Below are positions 4,099-52,571 of a stretch of DNA of 64,000 bases, in pieces. Made by a program: the position numbers and the translations under genes. The first letter of the stretch is position 1. Each line of letters opens with the position of its first letter. The stretch covers positions 133,864 to 197,863 of the forward strand of contig JAZKIP010000001.1 in NCBI GenBank assembly GCA_040384805.1, in the 5' to 3' direction. The notes below the pieces were generated by a model. That model ran no database searches. It had not been told where the DNA came from and worked only from the letters and a program-made list of their open reading frames with translations. Origin of the DNA: Patescibacteria group bacterium (GTDB taxonomy: Bacteria; Patescibacteriota; Minisyncoccia; Phycocordibacterales; UBA9973).

Positions 4099-4104
4099 AG
4101 ATGT

Positions 4105-4317: not shown

Positions 4318-4368
4318 TAAAATTCCAACACTGCGATATATGTTTGTTTTAAAGTCAATATCTTACAA

Positions 4369-5490: not shown

Positions 5491-5505
5491 AAGCTTAAAA
5501 ATCTG

Positions 5506-27480: not shown

Positions 27481-27512
27481 GTGACCAGAGTGAAAGCTCT
27501 GGTCATTTTTAT
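27481..27512. terminator. Bidirectional terminator
   Basis: GTGACCAGAGTGAAAGCTCTGGTCATTTTTATT. Confidence 0.55.
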
Positions 27513-29251
27513 TCAATAAAACCGCCGCTTTGATGATTCCATAAATTAGCATAGACGCCGCCTTTTTCAATAAGCTCCTTGTGCGTTCCCATTTCGGCGA
27601 TAGCTCCCTCCTCAAGGACAATGATGCGGTCCATTTTCTGAATAGTGGAGAGACGGTGAGCGATGACGAGGGTGGTCTTCCCTTTCATGAGCTCGGTAAA
27701 CGCTTGTTGAATATATCCTTCGCTTATGCTGTCGAGCGAGCTTGTCGCTTCATCGAGAATCAGGATCGGGGCGTTCTTTATCATCGCCCGGGCAATAGCC
27801 ACCCTTTGGCGTTCGCCGCCCGAGAGCTTTACTCCCCGCTCGCCGACAAGAGTATCGTATCCGTGCGGCAATTTTGAAATAAATTCATGCGCATGGGCTT
27901 TCTGAGCAACAACTTCGATCTCTTCCGATGACGCCTCCTGCCTGCCATACGCAATGTTGTCCTTGATCGAACGATGAAAAAGTATCGACTCCTGAGGAAC
28001 ATAGGCAATTGCCGAACGCAGATCATTTTGAGCAATCGTCCGTATATCCTGTCCATCGATCGCGATAGTGCCGTCCGACACATCCGCAAACCGCAGGAGT
28101 AGTTTCGTAATCGTCGACTTGCCCGCACCCGAGTGTCCCACAAGGCCGATTCGTTCGCCGGCTGTAACTTCAAGATTCAAATTCTCAAACACTCTAATGC
28201 CCCCTGCATACTCAAACGAAACATTTTCAAATGAAATAGCTCCCTGTGTGATACGGACTGGCTCGGGATTCTCCGGATCTGCGATGTCGATCGTCTGGTC
28301 GAAAATATCGACAATCTCCTTCATATCGGTCAATGCCTTAACCGCCTTAGTTAAGGACTTGCCCAGATTCCATAGAATATCGAAAAGGTTGAAAAGATAG
28401 ATCTGAAGCAAAACGATGATTCCGAGCGTTATCTGTCCCTGATACCATAAATAAACGCTTACTACGAGAGTCCCGATCCGCAAGATGGCCATCAATAAAG
28501 CCTGTATAGAATTTTGCAGATTTCCGAAGTACCAGGCTTTTCGGCGCTTTTGTTCTTCATTTTCCGTTATTACTTCATATTTTTCTTTTTCATTTTTATC
28601 ACCCCCGAAGATCTTGATGTTAAGTACGTTGAGAATCGCATCGGCAAGGTGGCCCGTTACGCGTGAATCCGCTTCCGCTTCCTCGACGTCATATAATATT
28701 TTTCGTCGTATGAAAAGAAAGCTGATTCCTATATACACGACAGACCATATGACGAATATCTGTGCAAGCAATGGAGCTTTCAGGAAAAGAACGATGCTGA
28801 TTCCGATAATGGTCGTGACTGAGAAAAAGATCTGATACGTAACGACATCCGCAAGAGTTTCAAATGACTTGGTGAACCGCTTCGCCTTTGCTACGAGGCT
28901 ACCTGAAAAATTGTTTGAGAAAAAATGATATGAATGCTTCAAGAGACGCTCGAAGGTCGCATCGTTGAGTTCTTTCATCACCTTGCTCTGGACATATGAA
29001 TTCATATAGTCTCCCGTTCGATATCCGACGTTATACAGTAGGACGCCCCCGGCTACGAGAAGCACCAGATGGAGAGCATGGCTCAAGATGGCATCTGGAG
29101 CCGCACCCGATGATAAAACATCAATAATTTCCTTATAAAGATACGGATTAATAACGAGAAGATAACCTAAAAATATAACCGAAGAAGCAAGCCAGTACTT
29201 TTTCAAATGAGGTTTTATATAAAAGAAAATTCGAGAGAAATTCGTTTTCAC
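27509..29251 (-). CDS. ABC transporter, fused permease/ATPase (MsbA-like exporter)
   Basis: Six-TM N-terminal domain, then Walker A GHSGAGKST, the ABC signature LSGGERQRVAIARAM, and Walker B ILILDEATSSLD. Confidence 0.9.
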   Translation of the reverse strand: MKTNFSRIFFYIKPHLKKYWLASSVIFLGYLLVINPYLYKEIIDVLSSGAAPDAILSHALHLVLLVAGGVLLYNVGYRTGDYMNSYVQSKVMKELNDATFERLLKHSYHFFSNNFSGSLVAKAKRFTKSFETLADVVTYQIFFSVTTIIGISIVLFLKAPLLAQIFVIWSVVYIGISFLFIRRKILYDVEEAEADSRVTGHLADAILNVLNIKIFGGDKNEKEKYEVITENEEQKRRKAWYFGNLQNSIQALLMAILRIGTLVVSVYLWYQGQITLGIIVLLQIYLFNLFDILWNLGKSLTKAVKALTDMKEIVDIFDQTIDIADPENPEPVRITQGAISFENVSFEYAGGIRVFENLNLEVTAGERIGLVGHSGAGKSTITKLLLRFADVSDGTIAIDGQDIRTIAQNDLRSAIAYVPQESILFHRSIKDNIAYGRQEASSEEIEVVAQKAHAHEFISKLPHGYDTLVGERGVKLSGGERQRVAIARAMIKNAPILILDEATSSLDSISEGYIQQAFTELMKGKTTLVIAHRLSTIQKMDRIIVLEEGAIAEMGTHKELIEKGGVYANLWNHQSGGFIE

Positions 29252-29277: not shown

Positions 29278-29775
29278 TTAATATTCTCCGACAATCAATC
29301 CCCCTGCTTCGTTTCTTCCTAGCCGTTTTTTGTCTTTGATATAAAACAGTGTGTCGTATGGTCGCCTTTTACAACACAAATAGTGCTCATCGGCTGCGTT
29401 GCGGTGTGCCTCTTGTTCAAGCGCAGTGAAATAGTATGCCTGTCTTCTGTCGAGCTTTTTAATGAGCCGTGCATAAGCATATTCAAGAATAAACAACACC
29501 CATGCTCCGATAATGAATAATTCCAGTTGTTGCTGAATATGAATAGTCTCATGACGTATCAATTCTCTATGATTTCGCGTATCCGCACGGACAAAAAGAA
29601 AAGGATAGAATGTAATCCCCATAGCATTCGATCCGAGAGAGATAAGTCTCCCGAGCCTCCGGACGACCATGTCAGATGTCACGATCCAGTAATACCCCTT
29701 GAACTCGAATTTCATAGCTTGATTATACCAGACAAGCTTTGCTTTTCTGTCGATTCTTTGATAGTATAAATCCAT
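29278..29775 (-). CDS. Putative HExxH zinc metallopeptidase-like protein. Start placed at MDLYYQ.
   Basis: HETIH (HExxH) motif in RNHRELIRHETIHIQQQLEL, followed by hydrophobic helices. The ORF track extends the N-terminus through the tandem 36-bp repeats to 29865. Family not assignable from the sequence. Confidence 0.4.
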   Translation of the reverse strand: MDLYYQRIDRKAKLVWYNQAMKFEFKGYYWIVTSDMVVRRLGRLISLGSNAMGITFYPFLFVRADTRNHRELIRHETIHIQQQLELFIIGAWVLFILEYAYARLIKKLDRRQAYYFTALEQEAHRNAADEHYLCCKRRPYDTLFYIKDKKRLGRNEAGGLIVGEY

Positions 29776-29865
29776 TCCGGAGTAGTTGAAATGCGAAGAT
29801 ATGCAGCATATAACTACTCTTGATGTCGTATTCCGGAGTAGTTGAAATGCGAAGATATGCAGCAT
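29774..29865 (+). repeat. Two perfect tandem copies of a 36-bp repeat that begins with the tRNA-Asn 5' end (ATTCCGGAGTAG)
   Basis: ATTCCGGAGTAGTTGAAATGCGAAGATATGCAGCAT at 29774..29809 and 29829..29864. The first 12 nt equal the 2 nt before tRNA-Asn plus its first 10 nt. Confidence 0.7.
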
Positions 29866-29883
29866 TTCAAGGGCGGAGGCGCA

Positions 29884-29913
29884 ATGGCGCCGAGACGGGG
29901 TCGCGAGATTTTT
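29884..29913 (+). promoter_or_regulatory. Copy 3 of the conserved GC-rich/palindromic motif, ~55 nt upstream of tRNA-Asn
   Basis: GGCGCCGAGACGGGGTCGCGAGATTTTTCAGCAGAAAAATAC. Compare the minus-strand readings of 3303..3332 and 2856..2883. Confidence 0.4.
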
Positions 29914-29967
29914 CAGCAGAAAAATACTTGTGACCAGCGGTCCCGCTGACTACTCCATCTAAAATAT

Positions 29968-30039
29968 TCCGGAGTAGCTCAGCGGTAGAGCAATCGACTG
30001 TTAATCGATTGGTCGCAGGTTCGATCCCTGCCTCCGGAG
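29968..30039 (+). tRNA. tRNA-Asn (anticodon GTT)
   Basis: TCCGGAGTAGCTCAGCGGTAGAGCAATCGACTGTTAATCGATTGGTCGCAGGTTCGATCCCTGCCTCCGGAG. Anticodon loop CTGTTAA. Confidence 0.85.
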
Positions 30040-30046
30040 CATAAAA

Positions 30047-30781
30047 CTAATTTTTTAAACCCGTCCACTGTATCAGGCTGACTTTCCAATCAGTAAAATC
30101 ACTATTTATTTCAACTAAGTAAGACACAGGATGATTATTCCCCAAACATGTAACTGAATAGTTTTGTGCGCCATCTGATTTTGTAGATACTAAACTGACA
30201 CAATATATGCTGCCGAATGGATGCTTACCATGAAAATTTTGATCTACTTTCCGTGGATGCCATTCTCCTGATCCATTACTAAATACAAAAACGGCAAGAT
30301 TTTTATTTTTTGCATATCCAGGATGCTCGGTATCCTTTTTCACCTTTTTATTTATTGCATCAATTATGAGCTCATCTGTAGTTAATAGTGTGTTCGTATT
30401 TGGAGGATTCATTGCAATGACATGCTCAAATAAATAGCCTTTTTTGGTCTGTTTGTTCATAATTATTCCATCACCTCCTTTGATTTCCTGGAATGTAAAA
30501 ACATCTCCATGAATTTCATTCAGCACAGCACACATCAACCAGTTCACCCATGCTTCTCTTGGTCTCATATCAAAACTGTTTCCATCATCAATTCCGATTC
30601 TATCTGTTTTTTTGGGTAAATTATTTCCATCAATCAAAAATGGTCGTCCTTTCATATCGGCACTTTTTACCATTGATTCAAGCTCTTTAAGAGTAGTTTT
30701 TAAATCCCTTATTCGATAACCAATTTTGTGCACAGTCCGGTCTTCTTCGGCTGAATCATTTGGTGTAGTATGTCCTGCCAT
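30047..30781 (-). CDS. Hypothetical protein (244 aa), first gene of the tRNA-Asn island
   Basis: ORF only. No integrase-like motifs. Confidence 0.4.
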   Translation of the reverse strand: MAGHTTPNDSAEEDRTVHKIGYRIRDLKTTLKELESMVKSADMKGRPFLIDGNNLPKKTDRIGIDDGNSFDMRPREAWVNWLMCAVLNEIHGDVFTFQEIKGGDGIIMNKQTKKGYLFEHVIAMNPPNTNTLLTTDELIIDAINKKVKKDTEHPGYAKNKNLAVFVFSNGSGEWHPRKVDQNFHGKHPFGSIYCVSLVSTKSDGAQNYSVTCLGNNHPVSYLVEINSDFTDWKVSLIQWTGLKN

Positions 30782-30823
30782 AAAATGATTTTACCATTTT
30801 TCATTTGTTTTGTGTCAAACTCT

Positions 30824-31000
30824 TTCGAATATCCTCCCACGTTTGGAGCTATTAAAATTTTAAGCCCTTAGCGGGGCTTGTAATTTTTTAGCTCCGGAGG
30901 AGTAAGGCAATTTCTTGCCTTACGTCAGGGATCGAAAGATTGGCAATGTTTCGGTTACAAAACTGCCAATCACGCGCAGTCAGCGCGATTCCCTGCCAAA
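30824..31000 (+). ncRNA. Structured repeat element A (~175 nt): tRNA-3'-end-like hairpin, long hairpin, conserved core, two covarying hairpins
   Basis: Shares the 48-nt core GCTCCGGAGGAGTAAGGCAATTTCTTGCCTTACGTCAGGGATCGAAAG with element B. Two downstream helices differ from B by compensatory changes. The core is an antisense copy of the tRNA-Asn 3' end split by a hairpin insertion. Confidence 0.45.
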
Positions 31001-31120
31001 ATTCTATGAATGGAAAAGGTGTACTGATCCTGTAAGGATCGATTCCTAGTCAATTACCCGTTGTAGACGAGATCTCTCCTTCTATTAGTATAAGTTCAAA
31101 CCTGTGATATAATTTTAATT

Positions 31121-31372
31121 ATGCAGGAACAACTTCCAAAGAAAAAATATACACTTGAAACTATTCCCAAAGATGTCGCAACAAGCGCTCATACATATTT
31201 AAGTGCTATTGCGTCAGGTACAGCTTCAAATGAGGAAATAAATTGGCTTATTGATAATATAGAACCTAAAGCCATTAAAGATTTATCCCGTCTAAATGAG
31301 TATCTTTCTGAATCAAAAGCTCTTGAAGAAATTATAAAACGGAAATCGCTCCCACCTAATTTTTTTGACTAA
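31121..31372 (+). CDS. Small hypothetical protein
   Basis: 83-aa ORF between structured elements A and B. Confidence 0.35.
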   Translation: MQEQLPKKKYTLETIPKDVATSAHTYLSAIASGTASNEEINWLIDNIEPKAIKDLSRLNEYLSESKALEEIIKRKSLPPNFFD

Positions 31373-31400
31373 GTAATTTGACTATCCTCGATAATAGCCA

Positions 31401-31572
31401 TTCGAACATCACCCCACGTTCGGAGCCATATAAAAAACCGCACTTTCGTGCAGTTTTTTATATGGCTCCGGAGGAGTAAGGCAATTTCTTGCCTTACGTC
31501 AGGGATCGAAAGTTTGGTGATATTTCGGTTACGAAATCACCAAACACGCCCTGTAAGGGAGATTCCCTGCCA
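31401..31572 (+). ncRNA. Structured repeat element B (~170 nt), paralog of element A
   Basis: The 48-nt core is identical to A. Helices TTGGTGA..TCACCAA (B) versus TTGGCA..TGCCAA (A), and CCCT-GTAA-GGGA (B) versus CGCGC-AGTCA-GCGCG (A). Long hairpin GAGCCATATAAAAAAC...GTTTTTTATATGGCTC. Confidence 0.45.
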
Positions 31573-31611
31573 TATGGTATATTCTAAATATATTCGATAC
31601 AATACATTTGT

Positions 31612-32100
31612 ATGACTGATATATCTACTCTTTTATCGCTTAAACAAATTTGGATTCTTTCTCCACTTGCCCAAATTGTTATTATGGTTGTTTTGTATAT
31701 TATAACTGGCTTTACACAGTTACCTTTCTACAAAAAAACTGGTAAGCTCTTTTATAACTATCCTCCAAACTCTTTCCTGATTTTTGCTCCCATATATGAA
31801 GAAGTGATTTTTCGAGGAATTCTTCTTGTAACATTTACAAATTTATATGGGCTAGTATGGGCAATAATCTTGCAATCAGTTTTATTTGGTCTTTGGCATC
31901 TACGATCACTTCTTTTTATGTCGCCTAAAAGAGTTACGATTCAAGTCCTCTATACAGGTCTTATTCTAGGGCCACTATTTGCCATTATTACTATCTGGGC
32001 TGGAACCATCTGGATAGCGGTTATCCTGCATTTCTTAAACAATTTCTTAGCTTGCGTAACCCACAGAGAATCCCAAGAGTTGCTTAGTGCACCAAAATAG
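31612..32100 (+). CDS. CPBP family intramembrane metalloprotease (CAAX protease/Abi-like)
   Basis: EEVIFRG motif 1, FGLWH motif 2, and HFLNNF motif 3 in TM helices. Confidence 0.65.
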   Translation: MTDISTLLSLKQIWILSPLAQIVIMVVLYIITGFTQLPFYKKTGKLFYNYPPNSFLIFAPIYEEVIFRGILLVTFTNLYGLVWAIILQSVLFGLWHLRSLLFMSPKRVTIQVLYTGLILGPLFAIITIWAGTIWIAVILHFLNNFLACVTHRESQELLSAPK

Positions 32101-32105
32101 TCACT

Positions 32106-32129
32106 CAAGCATCGTCCAAGTTCGGAGCA
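32106..32129 (+). repeat. Hairpin-repeat family copy (partial, right arm only)
   Basis: CAAGCATCGTCCAAGTTCGGAGCA, immediately after the stop of ORF 31612. Confidence 0.4.
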
Positions 32130-32142
32130 TCATAAGTTATCC

Positions 32143-32772
32143 TTATTTATTAAGGTTATTTTTTCTACTTAAGAATAATTTAGAATTAGGATTATCATAG
32201 TAAGTTTTACATGCATCTTCAAAAACTTCTTGGAAAATTTCTTTTACATAAACAGAACTCTTGGCGATAAACTCTTCGTCTTTTTTACAAAATTGTTCAT
32301 AAGTGACACCAAAACTTTTATAAGGACGCCAATTATCAATATCTCCCATGATTATTCCTTGCATCTTGTCCACACTCCAAACAAAAAGTGCCTCTTCATT
32401 AAGTTCTTCATAACTATTTAATGTTTCAGTAAAATCCTTGAAGTCACGAAATTCATTACCTATCTTATCTAGTTCAAGACTCTCGCGTTCTTTTTTAAGA
32501 TTCTTTTCTTCTTTTCCCGCATAGGTATTTACATCGGACTTTAAGCCTCGCTCTGAAAAATCATGTATTAATGCGTATTTTAATATTTTTTCTAAATTTA
32601 GAGGCGGCTTCACCGTTTCATAGATCTTCCAACAAAGCATCGCCAAAGAAAAAGAGTGTTCTACTACATTTTCATGACGCTCAATTCCAGGAACACTATG
32701 ATTACGTTCGACCTTCATTATTTCCAAAACCAACTGTTGAATCTCGCTTAATGAAGTTAGGTTAGATTTCAT
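32143..32772 (-). CDS. HD-domain phosphohydrolase-like protein
   Basis: H...HD metal-binding signature: ENVVEHSFSLAMLCWKIYE ... YALIHDFSE. Confidence 0.55.
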   Translation of the reverse strand: MKSNLTSLSEIQQLVLEIMKVERNHSVPGIERHENVVEHSFSLAMLCWKIYETVKPPLNLEKILKYALIHDFSERGLKSDVNTYAGKEEKNLKKERESLELDKIGNEFRDFKDFTETLNSYEELNEEALFVWSVDKMQGIIMGDIDNWRPYKSFGVTYEQFCKKDEEFIAKSSVYVKEIFQEVFEDACKTYYDNPNSKLFLSRKNNLNK

Positions 32773-32803
32773 AACTCTATTCTATCATACTCATCCGAAC
32801 ATC

Positions 32804-32830
32804 GTCCCAGGTTCGGAGCAAATTTTTGAG
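32804..32830 (+). repeat. Hairpin-repeat family copy
   Basis: TCCGAACATCGTCCCAGGTTCGGAGCA. Arms CCGAAC/GTTCGG around loop ATCGTCCCAG. Confidence 0.5.
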
Positions 32831-32897
32831 CCATATAATTGAATGGTTATTTTTTCTATTTTAGCGCAAATTCGAACTCGTGATACAATAAATATAT

Positions 32898-33431
32898 ATG
32901 GGAAAATCTAAACCTCAAAAAATAATACACGGTACAGGAATGGAAACCGTTACATTCAGACAGGTAGAGATGTTTACAGAGATGGCAAACAAGGTTTTTG
33001 AAGAGCAAAAAAAAGAAATTTTAGCCAAACTACCTTATGCTGAAGTTCATCATATTGGCAGCACAACTATACCAGGTTCAATAACAAAAGGAGATCTAGA
33101 TGTTAATGTAAGAGTTGAAAAAAAAGATTTCAATACGGCTATTGAATCAATGAAACAAATGTATGATATAAATCAGCCAGAAAACTGGAGAGGAGGTTTT
33201 GCAAGTTTCCAGACTGATACACTAGAAATAGATTTTGGAGCTCAGTTAACTATTATAGATTCAGAAGAAGATGTTTTTTTAAGAAACAAAGCTGTCTTGC
33301 AATCTCATCCTGAACTTGTTGAAAAGCTGAATCAAATTAAATTAAAATATGAAGGTAAATTAATGACTGCATATAGAAAAGAAAAGTATGAGTTTTTTAA
33401 ACAAATTGAATTCCAAAAACAAGACAACTAA
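32898..33431 (+). CDS. GrpB (UPF0157) family nucleotidyltransferase-fold protein
   Basis: HHIGSTTIPGSITKGDLDVNV matches the GrpB signature HVGSTSVPGL.AKPIIDI. Confidence 0.55.
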   Translation: MGKSKPQKIIHGTGMETVTFRQVEMFTEMANKVFEEQKKEILAKLPYAEVHHIGSTTIPGSITKGDLDVNVRVEKKDFNTAIESMKQMYDINQPENWRGGFASFQTDTLEIDFGAQLTIIDSEEDVFLRNKAVLQSHPELVEKLNQIKLKYEGKLMTAYRKEKYEFFKQIEFQKQDN

Positions 33432-33482
33432 CATTTAATTTTCTTTAAGTTTTCTGCTTGTCTATGCTTGTCTAAAAGGGCT

Positions 33483-33510
33483 TTCCGAACATCCTCCCAC
33501 GTTCGGAGCA
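33483..33510 (+). repeat. Hairpin-repeat family copy (consensus-like)
   Basis: TTCCGAACATCCTCCCACGTTCGGAGCA. Confidence 0.5.
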
Positions 33511-33616
33511 AACGAAAACCGCTTTAGAAATAAGGAAATTTTTGTGACCTTAATAGAAGTTTGAACCTAGTGATATAATACACTTAGGTTCTATTATTAA
33601 TTATAAAATAATATTT

Positions 33617-33802
33617 ATGAGAAAACTTAAATGTAAAGATATAAACCCAACTACAACATGCAATTACGAAGCTACTGCTGAGAGTGCTCAAGAGGTAGCT
33701 CTAAAAATGATAGAACATGCAAAAATCCACCATACAGCCGATGTAGAAAATATGACAGACGGAGAAATGATCAAAGCATTTGAAGCCAAAGTACATGAGT
33801 AG
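33617..33802 (+). CDS. DUF1059-like small protein
   Basis: 61 aa. MRKLKCKD...C....E.....HAK.HH pattern. Confidence 0.4.
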   Translation: MRKLKCKDINPTTTCNYEATAESAQEVALKMIEHAKIHHTADVENMTDGEMIKAFEAKVHE

Positions 33803-33835
33803 ATAAAGAGTATTTAATTATTAAATTAAAAAAAC

Positions 33836-34213
33836 ATGAAAACAAATAGTAAAAAATATGTTGATGGTTTTGTTATCCCGATAAAAAAGAAAGATCTAGC
33901 AGCTTACAAGAAGATGGCAGAATGGGGGGCTAAAATATGGAAAAAGAACGGTGCATTGGAGTATTTTGAGTGCGTGGGAGATGATTTAAAAGTACAAAAA
34001 GGCGGGGGACAAGGCTTTGCCAAACTTGCAAAGCTCAAACCAAATGAAACAGTAGTTTTTTCATGGATCGTATACAAATCTAAGGCGCATCGCGATCAGG
34101 TGAACAAGAAAGTAATGAGCGATCCTAGTATGAATAGTTTCGACCCCTCTACGATGCCATTTGATATGAGGCGTTTTGCTACTGGCGGGTTCAAACCAAT
34201 AGCGGAAGCCTAA
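33836..34213 (+). CDS. DUF1428 (YbaA-like) protein, paralog 1
   Basis: KYVDGFVIPIKKKDLAAYKKMAEWGAKIWKKNGALEYFECVGDDL ... VVFSWIVYKSKAHRDQVNKKVMSDP...MPFDMRRFATGGF aligns with E. coli YbaA along its full length. Confidence 0.65.
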   Translation: MKTNSKKYVDGFVIPIKKKDLAAYKKMAEWGAKIWKKNGALEYFECVGDDLKVQKGGGQGFAKLAKLKPNETVVFSWIVYKSKAHRDQVNKKVMSDPSMNSFDPSTMPFDMRRFATGGFKPIAEA

Positions 34214-34232
34214 TAAATTAAACTGTTAAAGT

Positions 34233-34263
34233 TCTTCGAACTTCGTTCCAAATTCGAAGCCAT
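34233..34263 (+). repeat. Hairpin-repeat family copy (diverged)
   Basis: TTCTTCGAACTTCGTTCCAAATTCGAAGCCA. Confidence 0.4.
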
Positions 34264-34490
34264 TACCCAATAGGGATTTGCCTGCTCTCTTTTTACAAGG
34301 TGTAGAATTTTCTTGTCGAAAAAAATTTTAATTTCCAAAATTGACTTATATATAAAACCATGCTACTATATGTTTTATAAATTAGTTCTTTGATAGATGG
34401 TTATTTATTGTTTGTTTTATTAAGTTCCTTCTGTTTCTTTAAAGAATTAGAAGGAGCTTAATAAATCTCTAACAATTAAAAAAACCAAAG

Positions 34491-34850
34491 ATGAAACAAG
34501 CGATTTTAATTATTGCAATTGCAAGCCTTCTGTCTTGTACTTCTGACATCCCCCAAACCACCCCGGAACCTGGGGCTGTTAGCAGCATAAAGCTGCAATT
34601 CGAAGACAATACCGTCGACTATTCGACGGATGAAAGTTTTCGTAAATTTAAGGTCGGCGATAAACTGACCGTTCAGCGGTCAAGTGATGGATATTCATCC
34701 TCTGAATGGGAAGTGTCCTCATCTCCCATTGTAAGGGATACTGTCACATGGGCTCCTTACTTAAAAACCTTCCCAGAAGCAAGCATATACGCGGGGCATA
34801 CATACCGGGAAGAGAGGGCCTACCGTAAGGCCGTAATAGTTAAAAATTAA
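34491..34850 (+). CDS. Putative lipoprotein
   Basis: MKQAILIIAIASLLSCTSD lipobox-type signal. It is preceded by a ~110-nt leader homologous to the one before ORF 36297. Confidence 0.45.
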   Translation: MKQAILIIAIASLLSCTSDIPQTTPEPGAVSSIKLQFEDNTVDYSTDESFRKFKVGDKLTVQRSSDGYSSSEWEVSSSPIVRDTVTWAPYLKTFPEASIYAGHTYREERAYRKAVIVKN

Positions 34851-34911
34851 GACCTGGGTCTAAACTCAAGGCTGATACTTACGTATCAGCCTTTTTTATT
34901 TCTTTAAAATA

Positions 34912-34943
34912 CCATTCGAACATCCTCCTGTATTCGAAGCTAC
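34912..34943 (+). repeat. Hairpin-repeat family copy (diverged), preceded by a terminator hairpin at 34869..34898
   Basis: CCATTCGAACATCCTCCTGTATTCGAAGCTA. Confidence 0.4.
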
Positions 34944-35286
34944 CTATTGACTTATATGATGAAATATGTTATTATATAAGTAATAATAATTCATTTTTTA
35001 CACGGTTTTTGATTACATAAAGAGATGACTTTAGGGTCTTTAAGGAAGTTAAAATCATCTATTTATAATAACCCAAAAAACTAAGAAATGAAAAAAATTT
35101 TTGTTTTTGTTCTTCTTGTAATTATGTTGACTTCTTGCGCAACAACCAAAAAGGATTGCCAGGGGGTTAAACATTATAAGCAAAAAGGCGGATTTTACAT
35201 GTAAGCCGCAGCAAAGCTATCTGGTTGTTTTAATTCCAGATAGCTTTTCTTTATTCACAATCTATAAATCATTCTAAATTTATCTC

Positions 35287-35631
35287 TTACAATCTCTTTT
35301 TAGAAAGTTTACCAAGTACATACTTTTGCGAAGGGCTTATCGGCTTATCTGTTCGGTGAGTACACCCTATCCAGCAGCACGGGCGGCGCTTCCCTTCTGC
35401 AAGTTCCGCAATAACTCTTTTGACATGTTCTTTTCTCGTCTCTTCGCTCTTGACCGAGACAGTCCAGCAGATCCACTCATTGCGCGCAAGCCGCGTAATA
35501 TCTTCCCACGCCGCAAGAGCCTTCCTGGAAGCAGTAAGAGCCTTTCGCAAATCCTCCGGTAATGCATGCGCCGTACCACTCGAAATTCCTTTTGTAGGCA
35601 TATAATTATAATAACATATAAACAAAAGCAT
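35287..35631 (-). CDS. YdeI/OmpD-associated family protein-like
   Basis: LPEDLRKALTASRKALAAWEDITRLARNEWICWTVSVKSEETRKEHVKRVIAEL resembles the PF13376-type pattern. Confidence 0.45.
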   Translation of the reverse strand: MLLFICYYNYMPTKGISSGTAHALPEDLRKALTASRKALAAWEDITRLARNEWICWTVSVKSEETRKEHVKRVIAELAEGKRRPCCWIGCTHRTDKPISPSQKYVLGKLSKKRL

Positions 35632-35697
35632 TATTGACTTACTTTAAGACATGTTAAAATGAGTAGGTAGTTGATTATAAATTTATAAAAAAATAAC

Positions 35698-36087
35698 ATG
35701 AAAACAAATAGTAAGAAATATGTTGATGGATTCGTTATCCCTCTTAAGAAAAAAGATGTTGCAGCATACCGCAAGATGGCAGAATGGGGAGCAAAAACGT
35801 GGAAAAAGTACGGCGCGCTCGAATACTTTGAATGCATTGGAGATGACTTGAAAGTGCAAAAGGGTATGGGGCAAGGGTTTGGAAAACTCGCGAAATTGAA
35901 GCCCGATGAAACTGTCGCCTTTTCATGGATCGTCTATAAGTCTCGCAAGCATCGCGATGAGGTTAACAAGAAAGTTATGGAAGAAATGAACAAACCGGCA
36001 AACAAGAAGAAATACGAAGACCAGCCTATGCCAATGGATATGAAACGGTTCACGTATGGCGGATTTAAACCGATAGTTGAAGCTTAG
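35698..36087 (+). CDS. DUF1428 (YbaA-like) protein, paralog 2
   Basis: ~75% identical to the protein from 33836..34213 over the N-terminal 100 aa. Confidence 0.65.
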   Translation: MKTNSKKYVDGFVIPLKKKDVAAYRKMAEWGAKTWKKYGALEYFECIGDDLKVQKGMGQGFGKLAKLKPDETVAFSWIVYKSRKHRDEVNKKVMEEMNKPANKKKYEDQPMPMDMKRFTYGGFKPIVEA

Positions 36088-36296
36088 TAAATTAAGCCCG
36101 TAAGCTCTTCAAAGACGCATCTTCGCGTTCATATATAAATTATTGACAATTTATATATTTTATATTACTGTAAACTACAGTAATAGTTCTTTGATATTAT
36201 CAATTTAGTTGTTAGATTTTATTAGGTTCTCCCAGTCTCTATAGGGAAACTGAGAGAACTTAATAAATAATTTTACTAACAATTAAATATTTCAAT

Positions 36297-45229: not shown

Positions 45230-45297
45230 TACTTTTAATTATATATAGTCCAGTTTTTAAGTTGCACAACCTCCTTTTAACGACACTAGTATGCAAG

Positions 45298-45911
45298 TTG
45301 TAATACAAGTAATGTTCGTTTCTTGATGACGATTTTCTTATTTTATATAAGCTGAATTTTCTTTGAATAGTAATGGCTTTTGTTATATTTCTTAGATAGT
45401 AGATTGCCCCATTTCCCCATCTTTTTTTATTACTTTCAGCGTCAAAACCAATTATCCCAAACTTTACGTTGTAATCCACGGAGACATAATAGTAGTAATA
45501 ATAGTATTCATGATTGCCAAGGTCTTTCAATTCAAATGTTAGCCTGAAATCTGTTTCGGAATCTCCTTCTTTCTTTTGCGATTTTAAGTATTCCTTAATT
45601 GCTTCAATTTTCTTTCTGCTCTTGTTTTTAGACAAATTTTTGTGATTGTAAATATCACAGACATATCTTGCTGAAACAACCTCTTGTTTATTTTTTTCTT
45701 CTAGAATATTGCGATTTGCGTGATTATTGATATTCGTCGCGATAGTACTATAATTTGCAGGGTTTTTTAATTTTCCTTGTGGCGGGTTATCCTTAAAATA
45801 GTCACGTAACAAGCGAACAACTTCTTTTAAATCTGTAGTGGAATACAGTTCCGTTTTCCGAACGCGGGCTGTAAGTTTCTTATATATATTAGGATCAATG
45901 GTTTTTTTCAT
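45298..45911 (-). pseudogene. Spacer-1 gene fragment, C-terminally truncated at the repeat junction
   Basis: ORF 45201..45911 reads through repeat 1. The tail translated from the repeat, LHTSVVKRRLCN, recurs in every ORF that crosses a repeat on the minus strand. Confidence 0.4.
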
Positions 45912-46827
45912 GAGTTCAAAATAGAAAATTGTGAAGATTTTTGTGAACTTTTTTTAAAAAATGTGTATGTCTCCGTTAACATGATCTATAGAAATGGTGG
46001 GAATTTTACCGCGATGGTAGCTAATAAAAAAACCCACCAGTTTTTTACTAGTGGGCCATCATCGGAAGGAACAGTATTCCGAGATGTAGCCTATAAGGTT
46101 GTTCAAAGCAACCAAGTGGCGTTCCTTTATTATACTGATTGTCAGTATAATAGCAACGTTATCTCTGTCTGTTCCAAATTAAACATGTAAAATCTATGTT
46201 TTATGGAACAGTATACATCCTTAAGATTCTCTGAATTAAGCGACGCAATTCTTGCCGGCTACAAGCATGATTTTGTAATACAAGTTAGTGGTACGCTTAA
46301 ATGCCTCTCAAAACCGGGTAAAGTTTATTCTCCTGATGAGGTTGATATAAGAGTCATTACTTCTTTGAAGAAGAAGGCTAGCCTTCTTCTTATTACTACC
46401 AATGATGGATTATACAAGGGAACGTCGGTGGATTATTGGGAATATTAAGTAAGGTCTAAATTTATTATCCTAAATAAGATTAGTTGCACAACCTCCTTTT
46501 AACGACACTAGTATGCAAGGTAATAATTTTTTTTATTTATAACATCATTGAGACATTGTAGAACAGTCTATTATTCTTCTCTTCACATTACGGAGAGCCA
46601 TCAGTAAAAAAAACCATCAACATTTGTTGATGGTTCACCCGTTCGGTAACAGCTTACCGAGAGATTATTTTACATAGTGGTGACACACTACGTAACGTAA
46701 TGATAATCTATCACTTATAGGTTATTTGTCAACTCTTTGTAGCCTGTTCCGACCATATCTGTAAAAAATATGGTTTATGGAACAATATAAGTTGCACAAC
46801 CTCCTTTTAACGACACTAGTATGCAAG

Positions 46828-47517
46828 GCTTATGATCCAGGAAATAAGTTCTCAATCCCATTTCAGTATTCAGCCTGTGGAATAGGAGTTGACACAAGCA
46901 AAGTCAAAAACTTCAAGAAAAGCTGGTCACTCCTCTTTGATGAAAAATATAAGGGCAAAATCAGTATGTTAGATGATATTCGTTATGGAATGGTTCCGGC
47001 ATTGAAGACCCTTGGCTATTCGCTAAACACAACTAACGAAACCGAATTAAGTCACGTTAGAGATTTATTGTTAAGGCAAAAATCTTTGGTCCGAGCCTAT
47101 ACTAGCGATACATATATTGATCTTCTCAAGTCAGGGGAAGTCTGGATAGCGTATGGATACACTGGGGATATTTATCAGGCGATAAAGGAAAATTCTAATA
47201 TTGTTTATTTTATTCCAGAAGAAGGGTCTGCGCTTGCAGTAGAAAGCATGTGCATCCTGAAAGGAGCTAAAAATAAAAAAACGGCCGAACAATTTATGAA
47301 TTATATTCTGGAACCTCAAGTAGATGCGGATATAGTAAATCACACTCAATATGCAACTCCAAATGATTCGGCTAAACAGTTTATTAACCCCAAAATTCTG
47401 AATGATGAGAATATTTTTCCAGGAAATTCAGTTTTTCTGAAAAGTGAGTATATACGAGATCTTGGTAAAGCAAATCTGCTATATGATAAACTATGGACCG
47501 AAATAAAGACCAAATAA
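46828..47517 (+). pseudogene. Spacer-3: N-terminally truncated PotD/PotF-like polyamine ABC substrate-binding protein fragment
   Basis: C-terminal ~230 aa of a spermidine/putrescine-binding protein fold (…GEVWIAYGYTGDIYQA…NYILEPQVDADIVNHTQYATPN…). It starts directly at the repeat junction with no start codon. Confidence 0.5.
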
Positions 47518-47610
47518 CAGTTTTTCCTTTGACAATTCAATAAACTTGCATCGTATTAGTTGGCGTAGTAAAATCTAATATTATTAGAGATTATAGGACT
47601 TCATGCCAAG

Positions 47611-48495
47611 ATGAATGAAAAATATAAGCTGAGAAATATCGAGCCCGGAATTTATCGCCAGCGAGGTATAGCCGAATTTCGCATTCTTGAATCCTCGATT
47701 TCAAAACGGGTATTTATAAAATACCTCAAGGAACTTTCCCGAAATTTAGGAATGCAACCACATCCAGAATTGCCAGAGCCAGTTATTACTTCAGCTTCTG
47801 GCTATACTTTACAAAAGCATGATGGCCTTGAAGGATTTCTATTCTGGCTAGAATCAGGACTTCACGCTTATTACTGGAAGCGTCCACAGATAATAACTGT
47901 GGACATGCATTCTTGTAAACCACTTATTGAAGAAGCTGTTGAAAATACAAGTAGAAGTAACTTTAGTATTGTTGAGTACAATTATGTAGACCTAGTTTTA
48001 AAAGAAAAGAAAGACAGTCAAAAAGTAAGGACCAGAATATATTCAATATCCCGAAAAGGCCTAATCGCTTCAAAACGCATCAAAAAAGATGAGTATATTT
48101 CTGGGTATTATGGTGAAGTTCACGAAATAAGAAGGACAAAGAAATTTTATAGAGCAGAATTTAAGAATGCAGTTCAATTCGCCGAACATAAATGGCGGGA
48201 ACCTGTCTTAAATAGTCTTGCACAAAACATTAACCATGCGTGTGTACCAAACTGCGGCATTAAAGGTATGTTTGATATAGTTGCCATTAGAAATATTGAA
48301 ATTGGTGAAGAATTATTGTTAGATTATGCAATGACAGAGGATTCCGACTTGAATATCCCTAAAGAAAAATGTTTATGTGGCACAAAAAAGTGCCGTGGAA
48401 AAGCAGTTCCTTATAAAAAGCTACCAAAAGAAGTCAAAGTATTATATAATAATTACATCTCCGAATGGTTAAAAAATAAGTATTATATCAACTAA
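47611..48495 (+). CDS. SET-domain protein (lysine methyltransferase-like), complete gene inside spacer 3
   Basis: NHACVPNC (SET NHxCxPN motif), EELLLDY (ELxxDY motif), and the post-SET Cys cluster CLCGTKKCRG. Confidence 0.65.
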   Translation: MNEKYKLRNIEPGIYRQRGIAEFRILESSISKRVFIKYLKELSRNLGMQPHPELPEPVITSASGYTLQKHDGLEGFLFWLESGLHAYYWKRPQIITVDMHSCKPLIEEAVENTSRSNFSIVEYNYVDLVLKEKKDSQKVRTRIYSISRKGLIASKRIKKDEYISGYYGEVHEIRRTKKFYRAEFKNAVQFAEHKWREPVLNSLAQNINHACVPNCGIKGMFDIVAIRNIEIGEELLLDYAMTEDSDLNIPKEKCLCGTKKCRGKAVPYKKLPKEVKVLYNNYISEWLKNKYYIN

Positions 48496-48796
48496 CATTA
48501 GCCATATCAGTTCCCCTGCATATAATATAGTTTGAAAAAACGCTAAAGTTTTGAAGGCTCAAGCAGCTGTATATTCGCGGGTTATTAAATCTGCAAAATC
48601 GTGAGGTTTAAGCAATACCATGTTAAAATTGAATGGACAAAGCTTTCCCTGATGAAATTTATAGCGTTTGTTCCTATCAAGAACTATTGCTTATTGATAC
48701 AAGATCCAACTCATATATTTGGAGTAATTGCAGGCACAGAGATTATGGAATTTTTAACCGTTGCACAACCTCCTTTTAACGACACTAGTATGCAAG

Positions 48797-49227
48797 TGAT
48801 CCACGCAACGGCCCATGAAAGTCGCTTGAATAGGACATCGATCTTGGAAATGTCAGAACATGGTGCAGACCCATACAGTATCGAAGAATTGATCGCAGAA
48901 ATGGGAGCCTCATACCTCTGCTATCATGCCGGCATTCTTCCGACCCCAATAGGAGACTATTTCGCCTACCTGAACGGCTGGCTCTGGATAAGCTTCGGCA
49001 AGATACTCACCTTGTTGTTACAGCAAGCGTATATGCGCAGCGGGCGGTTGACTACATTCTGGGGTATAAGGAGGCAACCAGCGAGAAAAAAGAGGAAGCG
49101 GAAGTGCCCGAAGCCATGGATGGGGAATAGGAGACATCTATACACAAAGCCCGGACTTTTCCGGGCTTTTTATAATTACTATTTCTTTTTTACTTCGTTA
49201 TATTTCAAACAAAAATTACAAGTATGA
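48797..49227 (+). pseudogene. Spacer-4: 3' fragment of an ArdC-like antirestriction/zincin gene, starting mid-gene at the repeat junction
   Basis: Begins ...IHATAHESRLNRTSILEMSEHGADPYSIEELIAEMGASYLCYHAGI (the HExxH...RLNR ArdC C-terminal metallopeptidase motif). The first 258 nt are 100% identical to 51706..51963 in spacer 6, then the two copies diverge. A terminator hairpin AAGCCCGGACTTTTCCGGGCTTTTT follows. Confidence 0.55.
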
Positions 49228-49256
49228 AAACAAGTATTCTGATTAACAATTTCATT

Positions 49257-49502
49257 CTATTCTTTATCTCTTATTTCTTGTCTTGCTCTTGAAAGATTTT
49301 CAAAGTAGTTCCCCTCAAAAGTTTCAGACACAATTTTCTCTAATGATGATTCAATATCAAAAAGAATTCTTTCTTCTGCTTGATCTTCAAATAGCAACGG
49401 GTGTTCTTTCTGATTGAATTTGGTTAACCATTCGAGCAGAACGAGAGCTTCATTACTACTTAGTTTTAGGAATATGTTTTTATTGTCTTTTATAACTTCC
49501 AT
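49257..49502 (-). CDS. Hypothetical small protein inside spacer 4
   Basis: 81-aa ORF. Confidence 0.35.
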   Translation of the reverse strand: MEVIKDNKNIFLKLSSNEALVLLEWLTKFNQKEHPLLFEDQAEERILFDIESSLEKIVSETFEGNYFENLSRARQEIRDKE

Positions 49503-49738
49503 AATTTATAGACCTCCGTGTTCAAGAACATTTTTTAATTGTACGGGATTAAGTTTCCAGCCGCTAATAAATTGTCCCGAAGGACTAGAGATAACATTAA
49601 GACCAGTATTTGGATTGAGATAGTGTATTACTGATTGACCTCTATATGTTCCATTAATAGCTTGAACACCTGCGGAATTGTTGCACAACCTCCTTTTAAC
49701 GACACTAGTATGCAAGAAATGGCGAGCAAATAAAAATT

Positions 49739-50380
49739 TTGGGCGTAGTGGCTCTTCAAAGAAATAGATCAATAATTAAAAAAATAGATAGAGTAATATC
49801 TACCATTTGGGACATAGCCAAGAAAAATTCTACTCCTAATGAAAATATAGTTATCCTGGAGATTTCAGAAGTTACCGGGATATCTCCAAAAGAAGTTAGT
49901 CTTTGTTTGCACCTCATTTCTGATTATGGTCAGTATGTTACGGGGAGTATAAGCGAGCAGAACACAAGGCTCTACACCGCAATTCAGATAAACGAAGATA
50001 TAAATGTATACTATAGGTATAGCGAATTTCCTGAGGCAAGTTCTCTCCTTGCATTGGATGAAATTAAGAATCAGACGCAACCCCAGGAGTATTTTAAGGA
50101 TGATGAAATTCTGACAATCGGTTGGCAATTGGATAGATTAAGGGAAGAATTTAAAAACGGCATATGTGTATTACAAACCGGACAGGAAATCATCTGGACG
50201 GATAATCAAGAAGATATCGCAGAAATGAAAATTCAGCTTTCCAAATTATCGAAGAAAAACTGGTTTCAACTCTTTATTGGTAAATTATTTTCAAAAGGCA
50301 TTGATAAGCTTTTCTTTGAACCTCTGTTTGAAAAGATTAAGAATTTTGTTGATCCGGCAATAAGTGGATTACTGAATTGA
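49739..50380 (+). CDS. Hypothetical protein inside spacer 5
   Basis: 213-aa ORF starting 23 nt after repeat 5. Confidence 0.4.
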   Translation: MGVVALQRNRSIIKKIDRVISTIWDIAKKNSTPNENIVILEISEVTGISPKEVSLCLHLISDYGQYVTGSISEQNTRLYTAIQINEDINVYYRYSEFPEASSLLALDEIKNQTQPQEYFKDDEILTIGWQLDRLREEFKNGICVLQTGQEIIWTDNQEDIAEMKIQLSKLSKKNWFQLFIGKLFSKGIDKLFFEPLFEKIKNFVDPAISGLLN

Positions 50381-50544
50381 GGCTGCGCTTAATGCGATCC
50401 GTTACAATTTGCTGTTTTCCGTCCAATGATAAACTGTGTTTTCAGTGGCTTCGACAACTTTACATAATTACTTATGCCGGTTCTTCTGCTTCCTGTCATT
50501 TCTTCCCCGCTGCTGAAGAGAATTTATGTAGGGATTAGCAATCT

Positions 50545-50919
50545 TTATTCATCTGAGAATTCTTCAAGATCGAGTATGGCAAGCCCTTTGATTCCGTCTG
50601 GTGTCCTGATCCAGTATACGACAGAACTCGAATCAAAACACACTTCTAGATTGGAAATACATGCGTGTATTCGATAGCTGGTGGCAAGATCAGAGGAGCA
50701 ACGGAGTAAGCCATCTCTAAACTCAAACTTGACGGTATAACCATCCGCTAGGGCTTTTATGACTACCGGTGAGCATAGTTCTAATTCTGAAAAAGCTTTC
50801 ATTAAGAAAGGGTAATTGACTTCCTTCATGCTAGGCTGTGATTTCTCCGGATTATTCCGACCGGAATCTGAAGAGGCCGGCATTTCATACTGGCATTGAA
50901 TAGTAGATTTCTGTTCCAT
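50545..50919 (-). CDS. Hypothetical protein inside spacer 5
   Basis: 124-aa ORF. Confidence 0.35.
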   Translation of the reverse strand: MEQKSTIQCQYEMPASSDSGRNNPEKSQPSMKEVNYPFLMKAFSELELCSPVVIKALADGYTVKFEFRDGLLRCSSDLATSYRIHACISNLEVCFDSSSVVYWIRTPDGIKGLAILDLEEFSDE

Positions 50920-51264
50920 AACATTATTTTTTAGAGTTTGATAATGTCGGAACAGCCTGCGGAGAGGTTGACAGATCAGTCTATAAATGACAGAATGTCA
51001 TTATGTTACGTAGTGGTGGTACACTATGTAAAATAATCTCTCGGTATGCTGTTACCGAAGGGGTGAACCATCAACAAAATGTTGGTGGTTTTTTTCTTTG
51101 CTAATAGTCTATCCCAATAAAAGAAGAAACAAATGGCTGTAATCCACTGTCTTAATGCTGTTATAAATAAAAAAAATTATTACATTACTGTATTAAAAGC
51201 TGCGTTAATGGGAAACCGCTTAAAACCGTTGCACAACCTCCTTTTAACGACACTAGTATGCAAG

Positions 51265-52045: not shown

Positions 52046-52288
52046 TAAGCCCGGATACCGGGCTTTCTTTAATTAAGTGTTAACTATTAGCCATTATAAC
52101 TTGTTATTAAAAATCTCACTAGTTTTTTGAAATTACCTTAGAAAACCTCTAATTTACTACCTTTGCCATCCATTAAAGGAAATAAACATACAGTAAGATT
52201 ATCCTTAATGTGTATATAGGTCGTTTACAATAAGTTAACAAGTGGTACAATAATGGTAAGCTTTTTGTCACCTTAAATTTATTACATT

Positions 52289-52537
52289 ATGAAAAAGTAT
52301 TTCATACCAACGTTTAGACTTCCTTTCTCTTGGAAAGAGAAATTATTGGATAAGGTTGTTTATCAGCCTTATAAGTATTTTAATGGGGTTTATAAGGAAA
52401 CCGGCATTCTTGTCACAGAGAACCAACTAAATGAGATTGTAGAAATATTGTCTCTCAAATTGGTGTCCCAAAAGATGTCCGCTGAACCTGACATTATTGA
52501 AGTAACCGTCAGAAAATTGGACACGGTAGCAGCCTAG
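52289..52537 (+). CDS. Hypothetical small protein inside spacer 6
   Basis: 82-aa ORF. Confidence 0.3.
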   Translation: MKKYFIPTFRLPFSWKEKLLDKVVYQPYKYFNGVYKETGILVTENQLNEIVEILSLKLVSQKMSAEPDIIEVTVRKLDTVAA

Positions 52538-52571
52538 ACGAATACCATATTTAGGTCCCTTAGGGGACCTT

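Follow-up and report, generated by a model that had tools for sequence, protein, structure and literature searches.

Small non-coding modules built around split inverted copies of tRNA gene ends in Patescibacteria: an apparently undescribed family

A 64 000-nt stretch of a metagenome-assembled genome (MAG) of Patescibacteria (candidate phyla radiation), taken from contig JAZKIP010000001.1, positions 133 864 to 197 863, and hereafter called the window, was analysed for two related structured elements, A and B, that lie downstream of its tRNA-Asn gene. Together with A′, a fragment of a further copy, they were found to represent an apparently undescribed family of small non-coding insertion modules at Patescibacteria tRNA gene ends, mostly just 3′ of the gene; literature searches returned no description of such elements. 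Each module is composed of an optional palindromic hairpin (H), an antisense block (AS), a scaffold and a copy of the adjacent tRNA end in direct orientation (S). AS is an inverted copy of the last 12–23 nt of the adjacent tRNA gene, split by a hairpin (P2) opposite tRNA positions 64/65, and the scaffold is partly conserved, with the junction ATCGAAAG, helix P4 and helix P5 with its TGTAA loop, or with two hairpins termed X and Y. As to function, we tentatively favour the possibility that the elements are single-strand-folded DNA attachment sites in a gene-cassette island, used by a recombinase encoded in trans, since their closest precedents are the integron attC site and the folded attP(+) site of phage CTX. 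The features on which the description rests are the following.

29968 to 30040, plus strand: tRNA-Asn(GTT), on whose last 21 nt (30020–30040) the AS and S blocks are modelled.
30845 to 30895, plus strand: long hairpin H_A, consisting of GGAGC, a bidirectional terminator-like palindrome and GCTCC.
30891 to 30997, plus strand: element A, with the AS-acceptor block at 30891–30900, P2 at 30902–30923, the AS T-arm block at 30926–30936 followed by AG, P4 at 30939–30970, P5 at 30973–30987 and the partial S block GATTCCCTGCC at 30987–30997.
About 31007 to 31052, plus strand: A′, a 5′-truncated fragment of a further element 3′ of A, holding the 3′ arm of P4, P5 as GATCC-TGTAA-GGATC and a degenerate S block.
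31422 to 31469, plus strand: long hairpin H_B, consisting of GGAGCC, a terminator-like palindrome and GGCTCC.
31465 to 31571, plus strand: element B, with the AS-acceptor block at 31465–31474, P2 at 31476–31497, the AS T-arm block at 31500–31510, P4 at 31513–31544, P5 as CCC-TGTAA-GGG at 31549–31559 and the partial S block GATTCCCTGCC at 31561–31571.

A repeat search of the window paired 30884–30998 with 31458–31572 at 85% identity, and pairwise alignment confirmed the claim of an earlier sequence-only reading that the two elements have an identical 48-nt core, GCTCCGGAGGAGTAAGGCAATTTCTTGCCTTACGTCAGGGATCGAAAG, at 30891–30938 and 31465–31512. The core consists, in order, of GCTCCGGAGG, A, the hairpin GTAAGGCAA-TTTC-TTGCCTTAC, GT, CAGGGATCGAA and AG. 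The last 21 nt of tRNA-Asn, TTCGATCCCTGCCTCCGGAGC, divided as TTCGATCCCTG and CCTCCGGAGC, are the exact reverse complement of GCTCCGGAGG plus CAGGGATCGAA, the two AS halves being separated by the 25-nt insert from A to GT; this gapped pattern was observed twice in the window, against 0.00 expected from shuffles. The hairpin-split match of 21/21 nt that had been proposed was therefore upheld, but not as antisense over its whole length: CTCCGGAG, which accounts for 8 of the 21 matched nt, is itself palindromic, so that CAGGGATCGAA alone is unambiguously antisense.

Public collections were scanned with the exact pattern GCTCCGGAGG-N15–40-CAGGGATCGAA, and the convincing matches were three sites on one contig, CAYGHQ010000004.1, of a MAG labelled Candidatus Saccharibacteria. 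Sixteen stretches of genome contigs fitted the pattern, those of this one MAG being real and the others chance matches or unrelated tRNA genes; none of the 10 stretches found in metagenome contigs was real. The elements of this MAG (L016 1a, 1b, 1c and 2, and L011-1) are longer than A and B and end in a direct copy of the tRNA end, ...TCCCTGCCTCCGGAGC. In the minimum-energy folds of L016 1a, L016 2 and L011-1, AS pairs with S through P1 (GCTCCGGAGG/CCTCCGGAGC) and P3 (CAGGGA/TCCCTG), P2 protrudes opposite tRNA positions 64/65 and the stem encloses an interior of several hairpins, with z scores of −4.4 to −9.1. The AS:S stem of every full-length copy is, in the minimum-energy fold, the tRNA gene duplex from TCCCTG to GGAGC; it rebuilds the T-stem/acceptor duplex from the T-loop to N73-C, and P2 and the scaffold are extruded from it. 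A and B are truncated at their 3′ side, ending at ...TCCCTGCC where full-length relatives go on with TCCGGAGC.

Against dinucleotide shuffles, the folds of A and B gave z scores of −7.7 and −11.3 on the plus strand and of −7.9 and −10.3 on the minus strand, and none of 200 shuffles folded as well as A or B. P4 differs between A and B by three pairing-preserving double substitutions (C:G to T:A, A:T to G:C and A:T to T:A); in P2, three of nine pairs are changed on both sides between window and MAG copies and none is broken; in P5, the TGTAA loop is invariant and three of the five stem pairs covary across B, A′, L011-1, M2 and the copy on contig L030 described below, 15 of 500 shuffles doing as well. 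The compensatory changes proposed earlier for the flanking helices thus hold in P4 and P5, except that P5 of B had been drawn as CCCT-GTAA-GGGA and is CCC-TGTAA-GGG, and the proposed closing of both elements by pairing of CAGGGATC with GATTCCCTG was recovered with a 1-nt bulge. Trained on four copies, a covariance model recovered M2, which was not among them, at 79 bits, and also 1c, the unit upstream of the window tRNA-Ser and a new copy in L030; further copies do exist. As covariation persists when more homologues are added, the view that the structure of A/B-type elements is real and under selection is supported. No known Rfam family explains the elements: with Rfam 15 at gathering thresholds the whole window yielded its four tRNAs only, and in E-value mode the four regions searched yielded only spurious long-hairpin miRNA matches far below threshold.

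Versions with other tRNA ends were found at the corresponding tRNA genes. Contig L030, whose ABC transporter is 72% identical to that of the window, carries a Gly-type element directly after tRNA-Gly(CCC), in the order tRNA end TCCTATCCCGCACA, small palindrome, AS TGTGCGGGATAG, A, P2, GT, ACGAGAATCGAAG (T-loop antisense), P4, P5 as GATCC-TGTAA-GGATC, a second TCCTATCCCGCACA and the promoter of the next gene. This insert of about 144 nt lies between 14-nt direct repeats TCCTATCCCGCACA of the tRNA end, and a 36-nt stretch of it is identical in A′. On the same contig a partial Phe-type copy follows tRNA-Phe, its parts being a terminator palindrome, an AS of 9 nt, then a P2-like hairpin and GT. 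Further versions in the window are listed here.

29774 to 29956, plus strand: element C in the tRNA-Asn leader, of mirror design and based on the tRNA 5′ end.
3205 to 3434, minus strand: tRNA-Ser/Val leader, with two related units.
3434 to 3286, minus strand: Glu-type unit of that leader, with S TAGGGTCACA, a hairpin, AS, P2 with a GGGA loop, GAATCGAAAG and hairpins X and Y (module alpha).
3279 to 3205, minus strand: second unit of that leader, with different ends, GTTGGGAAATCGAAAG...GATTCCCTTCCAAC.
2848 to 2945, minus strand: tRNA-Val trailer, with the tRNA 3′ end, a palindrome, a short AS (TGCG) and module alpha (X/Y).

Element C contains two 36-nt repeats (29774–29809 and 29830–29865) that begin with TTCCGGAGTAG, like the tRNA 5′ end, followed by hairpins X and Y and an antisense copy of the tRNA 5′ end at 29942–29956. 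The Glu-type unit forms the far end of a 2.1-kb low-GC insert (3425–5513, minus strand) that starts immediately after tRNA-Glu and lies between two copies of the 10-nt direct repeat TAGGGTCACA (5513–5504 and 3434–3425); it codes for a 373-aa protein and a clan-AA aspartic-protease-like protein and also has a small open reading frame (ORF). The hairpin-Y motif TTTTCAGYAGAAAA occurs three times in the window (0.11 expected), each time adjoining a tRNA and in the same direction.

Several observations concern the tRNA genes themselves. The tRNA-Asn gene ends in N73-CA, and an encoded CCA is absent from all tRNA genes checked (window 2941, 3064, 5505 and 29968, and the L030 tRNAs); in six of them the discriminator is followed by CA (window Asn, Glu and Val; L030 Gly, Phe and Arg), and tRNA-Ser is followed by CTT. 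N73-C(A) is kept in the S blocks of full-length and Gly-type elements, and the S blocks of A and B are truncated before N73. Two tRNA genes are preceded by tandem partial copies of their own 5′ ends, namely tRNA-Asn by the 36-nt pair (29774–29865) and tRNA-Phe by two degenerate 5′-half copies (L030 9741–9828). The window tRNA-Ser is framed by a 12-bp inverted repeat that lengthens its acceptor stem in the manner of a processing stem (leader CCCGTACGAAGC, 3152–3164; trailer GCTTCGTACGGG, 3053–3064; minus strand), and just upstream of it is a class II-type pseudo-tRNA 5′ half, GGAAGGGTGGGTGAGTGGTTGAAGGCACCGTCTCG (3165–3199, minus strand), preceded by a complementary 3′-strand copy, CCCTTCCAA.

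In all evaluable copies (6/6), the tRNA end carried is that of the local tRNA gene. This bears on the earlier suggestion of a tRNA-derived element of the kind of a miniature inverted-repeat transposable element (MITE) or a short interspersed nuclear element, i.e. a non-autonomous transposon whose terminal inverted repeats happen to equal a tRNA end and whose transposase lies elsewhere. With 115–275 nt, no coding capacity, terminal inverted repeats of 16–21 nt, a structured interior and several copies per genome, the elements resemble MITEs; their copies, however, are not dispersed, the supposed terminal repeats vary with the adjacent tRNA, no consistent short target-site duplication of the MITE type is present at the ends and no transposase was found among the ORFs scanned, which leaves the suggestion weak and such an origin very unlikely.

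P2 splits AS at one constant position in the Asn, Gly and Glu versions, and a P2-like hairpin follows the 9-nt AS of the Phe copy. These regularities, the compensatory changes in P2 and the invariant loop and covarying stem of P5 count against regarding the elements as passive scars, in which S would be att duplications of double-strand tyrosine-integrase islands and AS and the hairpins would be remnants of attP arms, inverted att sites and terminators without structural function. Such remnants would also have to account for the 36-nt scaffold identity between genomes whose ABC transporters are only 72% identical and for the strand asymmetry of pairing described below, which is unexpected for double-stranded sites or neutral debris. 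In favour of scars, the block of identity runs from the T-loop to the tRNA 3′ end, which is reportedly classical for tRNA-targeting integrases, that of mycobacteriophage L5 among them; tRNA fragments and partial copies are plentiful near the tRNAs studied here, and A, A′ and B are truncated. Thermococcales integrases are reported to recombine inverted tRNA-related sequences (PMC5495485), which was counted on the same side. On balance an origin as scars is considered unlikely.

When both strands were folded with RNA parameters, the tRNA-sense strand was better than its complement by 8–23 kcal/mol in C, SerUp, M1a, M1b, M2 and M3, and SerUp has 12 G.U pairs on the sense strand and 2 on the antisense strand; A, B, ValDown and the Gly element of L030 have no strand preference. 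The asymmetry argues for a single-stranded functional form and against both neutral debris and purely double-stranded protein sites. The single strand may be RNA. The elements would then be tRNA-minihelix-mimicking RNAs transcribed with or beside tRNA genes, in which AS:S forms a 12-bp acceptor/T-stem stack with N73-CA that RNase P, RNase Z and the CCA-adding enzyme recognise and cut out of the transcript, either as the harmless, self-removing spacer of a selfish insertion or as a stable tRNA-like small RNA. Besides the sense-strand advantage, this is favoured by a G.U pair that hairpin Y retains at an identical position in four copies, by GGGA tetraloops in P2 of two versions, by the location of SerUp between a TTGAAA-N17-TATACT promoter and tRNA-Ser and of C upstream of tRNA-Asn, and by the Gly element of L030, which follows tRNA-Gly without an intervening GC-rich terminator.

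A, B and the MAG copies, in contrast, immediately follow strong terminator-like hairpins with T-runs and have no detectable promoter; none was found upstream of A or B on either strand. A and B are thus poorly placed for transcription, and an independent small RNA from the minus strand was rejected. An RNA role is further disfavoured by the missing strand bias of A and B, by the replacement of the T-loop, which confines the likeness to tRNA to the helices, by the lack of an Rfam match and by the short hairpin repeats described below, whose orientation is fixed whatever the direction of the genes and several of which are probably untranscribed. We regard a minihelix RNA as doubtful, though as the main competitor. 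The same placement bears on the earlier proposal of an RNA acting in trans on the 3′ end or precursor of tRNA-Asn to control its processing: the complementarity of 21/21 nt speaks for it, but with the antisense block paired in cis in complete elements, terminators before A and B, no promoter and a like design at the loci of other tRNAs, a sign of a relationship in cis or at the level of DNA, an antisense regulator of this kind appears poorly supported and highly improbable.

The reading as folded attachment sites draws on the surroundings of A and B. From tRNA-Asn to gdh (37880) the window contains a low-GC island (31–39% GC, against 44–50% in the flanks) of small, mutually unrelated and mainly single-gene cassettes, at the boundaries of which there is a 27-nt short hairpin repeat (SH) with the consensus TTCCGAAC-ATCCTCNAAG-GTTCGGAGC(A). 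As described in the sequence-only reading, one SH and one long hairpin precede each of the two elements.

30823 to 30849, plus strand: SH1, TTTCGAAT-N10-GTTTGGAGC, whose GGAGC is the base of the next long hairpin.
31121 to 31372, plus strand: ORF of an 83-aa cassette protein between A and B, with homologues in L034, L035 and L036 flanked by SH.
31400 to 31426, plus strand: SH2, ATTCGAAC-N10-GTTCGGAGC.
32102 to 32128 (degenerate), 32793 to 32819, 33483 to 33509, 34234 to 34260 and 34914 to 34940, plus strand: further SH copies that delimit single-gene cassettes.

All SH copies of the window are on the plus strand regardless of the direction of neighbouring genes, and orientation is likewise uniform within each of the other loci and independent of gene orientation. 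The SH stem is paired in 95% of cells, its base pair 2 varying between C:G, U.G and U:A, and its top strand has 12 G.T against 3 A.C pairs, an asymmetry that likewise suggests a single-stranded form. SH reads as an acceptor-stem microhelix (TCCGAAC/GTTCGGA, then G and CA) and has TCCG...CGGA-G-CA in common with tRNA-Asn (TCCGGAG/CTCCGGA-G-CA); it is in this respect a mimic of the tRNA-Asn acceptor stem. Homologues of the 83-aa protein were located on three other contigs in SH-bounded arrays, with 5–6 copies in L035, three in L036 and three in L034, and cassette arrays with SH of the form TTCCGAAC-N10-GTTCGGAGCA extend over 30041–36130 of the window, L034 10680–12302, L035 346–2013 and L036 147–632. 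The three loci outside the window come from at least two other sources and have no tRNA near their arrays. L035 and L036 are identical from SH position 13 on and unrelated upstream, which places the cassette junction inside SH. The arrays look like an integron-like cassette system of Patescibacteria; viral contigs had no match to the core, the scaffold or SH.

Under the attachment-site reading, the folded single strand would be a recombination site, functionally analogous to attC or CTX attP, and the AS:S stem would mimic the duplex tRNA-end target. The recombinase encoded in trans would insert DNA at the tRNA gene end and regenerate the gene: a circle with one S and one AS, recombining within S at the tRNA gene end, would give the order S, small hairpin, AS, scaffold, S. 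H-B and then H-A would originally have abutted a tRNA-Asn-type end, and later insertions of SH-bearing cassettes, crossing over in the common CGGAGCA, would have left SH (left part) plus GGAGC-H-AS distally and the intact tRNA proximally, and would have moved A by 0.85 kb and B by 1.4 kb from tRNA-Asn. The earlier candidate of an att-site-derived recombination substrate fits best with the position at cassette boundaries, the direct tRNA-end copy of the full-length relatives and the 14-nt flanking repeat of one of them, with the qualification that A and B, lacking the distal part of S, are probably relics, i.e. displaced 3′-truncated copies, rather than active sites.

Several points weigh against this reading. 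For A and B themselves these are the incomplete S and the absence of a strand preference. Several other copies lie within tRNA transcription units and have the G.U-type asymmetry, for which an RNA role fits at least equally well. No integrase, transposase or reverse transcriptase apart from Cas1 (56444–57457) was detected in the 64-kb window by scans with Pfam, PHROGs and NCBIfam, which covered most ORFs of at least 110 aa, and none in the 16 kb examined of the related MAG. No excised form, empty site or presence/absence polymorphism was demonstrated for an A/B-type element; at the loci of LepA orthologues (L037–L040) the tRNA-Gly gene is entirely absent and no empty site is readable, and relatives reached by synteny through the ABC transporter (67–72% identity, L030–L032) are without an Asn-type element. 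It is a small data set, in which three genomes (MAGs or metagenome contigs throughout) supply about 12 copies. The 373-aa protein beside tRNA-Glu and the 244-aa protein beside tRNA-Asn had no Pfam, PHROG or NCBIfam match, and the former, considered as an integrase, is not recognisably one.

A further possibility, which we hold to be unlikely, is a retargetable insertion system, in which the exchangeable hairpin-split antisense block of about 20 nt would act as a guide that picks a tRNA gene end by base pairing, as single-stranded DNA or RNA, and an enzyme would insert the element with its conserved scaffold, and cassettes, exactly at that end and duplicate it. It is allowed by the match of the ends to the adjacent tRNA (Asn, Gly, Phe, Glu and Val) and by the 36-nt scaffold identity between the Gly-type and Asn-locus copies of genomes about 72% identical in protein. 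Other identities were considered and dropped: permuted or split tRNA, transfer-messenger RNA, T-box, hammerhead or other ribozyme, and the palindrome-associated transposable elements of the IS200/IS605 kind. Retrons are marked by an adjacent reverse transcriptase, and group II introns also by six domains and a GUGYG 5′ end; no reverse-transcriptase domain was found with Pfam, and the elements, of 110–275 nt, start with GCTCC, for which a retron or group IIC intron was rejected. A tRNA primer-binding site was rejected as well, the Gly-type AS being a copy of the genomic trailer and not of CCA.

The window sequence was supported by independent assemblies. Logan contigs from the same sample confirmed the local sequence and broke exactly at the common 48-nt core, as a true repeat predicts, and exact look-ups of window proteins matched only short contigs of that sample, broken at the repeats. 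The ABC transporter at 27509–29251 is 100% identical to an NCBI protein of a ‘Patescibacteria group bacterium’ on a 200-kb contig, its next-closest relatives being at most 72% identical. The genes of the tRNA-Asn island encode the 244-aa and 83-aa hypothetical proteins, a CPBP/Rce1-like protease, an HD_3 protein, GrpB, two DUF1428 proteins, OmdA and lipoprotein-like ORFs. The two DUF1428 cassettes (33821–34117 and 35683–35979) are 78% identical in DNA; an SH copy, degenerate in one case, lies after each, and a promoter-like sequence downstream is common to both. The MAG elements have defence-type genes as neighbours (AbiEi/AbiEii, a KAP NTPase, NYN-ASCH and an EEP nuclease). On L011 of this MAG (about 3930–4240 and 4880–5010, minus-strand display), small GIY-YIG nuclease genes are bracketed by inverted copies of CCCCCACACCAAAT, and a similar palindromic pair interrupts an ORF next to them, suggestive of a small mobile or homing unit.

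A side finding concerns 45261–57457 of the window, a low-GC region with ten perfectly identical 37-nt CRISPR-like repeats, GTTGCACAACCTCCTTTTAACGACACTAGTATGCAAG, separated by spacers of 224–2278 nt, against the usual 30–40 nt or so. The end of the array adjoins an ORF of 111 aa (56116–56451) without family match and a bona fide cas1 (56444–57457; TIGR00287, 232 bits). The spacers hold genes and gene fragments; among them are a SET-domain protein, an N-terminally truncated SBP_bac_8 with its start right at a repeat, and two copies of MPTase-PolyVal with 98% identity along 300 nt. The region, in which no effector cas gene was seen, looks like a giant-spacer CRISPR-type array or a Cas1-linked cassette array, in either case a highly unusual one.

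Little is known of gene acquisition by Patescibacteria. If the elements are recombination sites, accessory and defence genes would be stockpiled in these tiny genomes in an integron-like manner, with tRNA genes as the anchor and with hairpins that imitate the gene end, and folded single-strand sites would have been adopted for cassette capture a second time and independently; for the enzyme, the SH repeats and the AS-P2-AS...S modules provide a search image. Ends that are exchangeable guides would make up a compact, naturally programmable targeting module, and elements that act as RNA a novel RNA class, mimicking tRNA and linked to tRNA operons. Whichever reading is true, these elements explain assembly breaks beside tRNA genes in such genomes.

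Among known systems, the minihelix substrates of RNase P and RNase Z (4.5S precursor, mascRNA type) are alike in the 12-bp coaxial acceptor/T-stem helix with a discriminator; they differ in that the elements have no T-loop or elbow and a helix 2 bp longer beyond position 1, and that transcription is here only hypothetical. The guide pairing of IS200/IS605 and the bridge or seek RNAs of IS110/IS1111 likewise combine an internal, hairpin-split complement of target or flank with a structured scaffold, seemingly exchangeable. Here, however, no gene for TnpA, TnpB or a DEDD recombinase was found with Pfam, both AS halves complement the same strand whereas bridge RNAs read opposite strands, and the guide would comprise 20 nt or more against 4–9 nt in guide-bearing mobile elements. 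Tyrosine integrases that target tRNA genes (T-loop class, L5) also leave flanking direct repeats, comparable to those of 14 nt in L030 and of 10 nt at the 2.1-kb tRNA-Glu island, but the modules have in addition an inverted copy split by a conserved hairpin and a covarying scaffold, and no integrase gene beside the tRNA.

Integron attC and CTX phage attP(+) are folded single-strand sites in which structure is conserved, sequence is variable and extrahelical features are asymmetric. CTX attP(+) and integrative mobile elements exploiting Xer have two inverted target-like copies, separated by about 100 nt, which in single-stranded DNA form a stem like the chromosomal target, as the AS:S pair does here. 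They rely on a recombinase of the host, the integrated arrangement S - x - AS - spacer - S is the one their reaction predicts, and successive insertions give tandem arrays. In contrast to these, the target is a tRNA end and not dif, there is no dif-like 11-6-11 motif, no Xer-type arms and no phage or replicon functions, and elements may be as small as about 150 nt. Compared with integrons, no IntI gene is near, although clusters of attC sites lacking integron-integrases are also without one, so that this difference alone is not exclusive. The attC boxes RYYYAAC/GTTRRRY (R″/R′) resemble SH (TYCGAAC...GTTCGGA) in AAC and GTT, positions 4/4′ breaking the consensus, and the ends of A and B, GCTCCGGAGG and TCCCTGCC, depart from it, their boxes being tRNA-derived. 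attC sites measure 57–141 nt, SH 27 nt and A/B-type elements 110–275 nt, with one SH site per cassette in one orientation; A/B-type sites show an extrahelical hairpin next to paired boxes and a terminal structure that branches. As in integron arrays, the cassettes mostly contain single genes, with or without a promoter, and are divided by imperfect palindromes in one orientation; reminiscent of attC are a structure conserved above sequence, two paired boxes, an asymmetric extrahelical feature, a variable and sometimes branched terminal structure, and the better folding of one of the two strands. Both kinds of array have a fixed primary site as their anchor, which is attI in the integron and here the 3′ end of a tRNA gene that the site sequence mimics.

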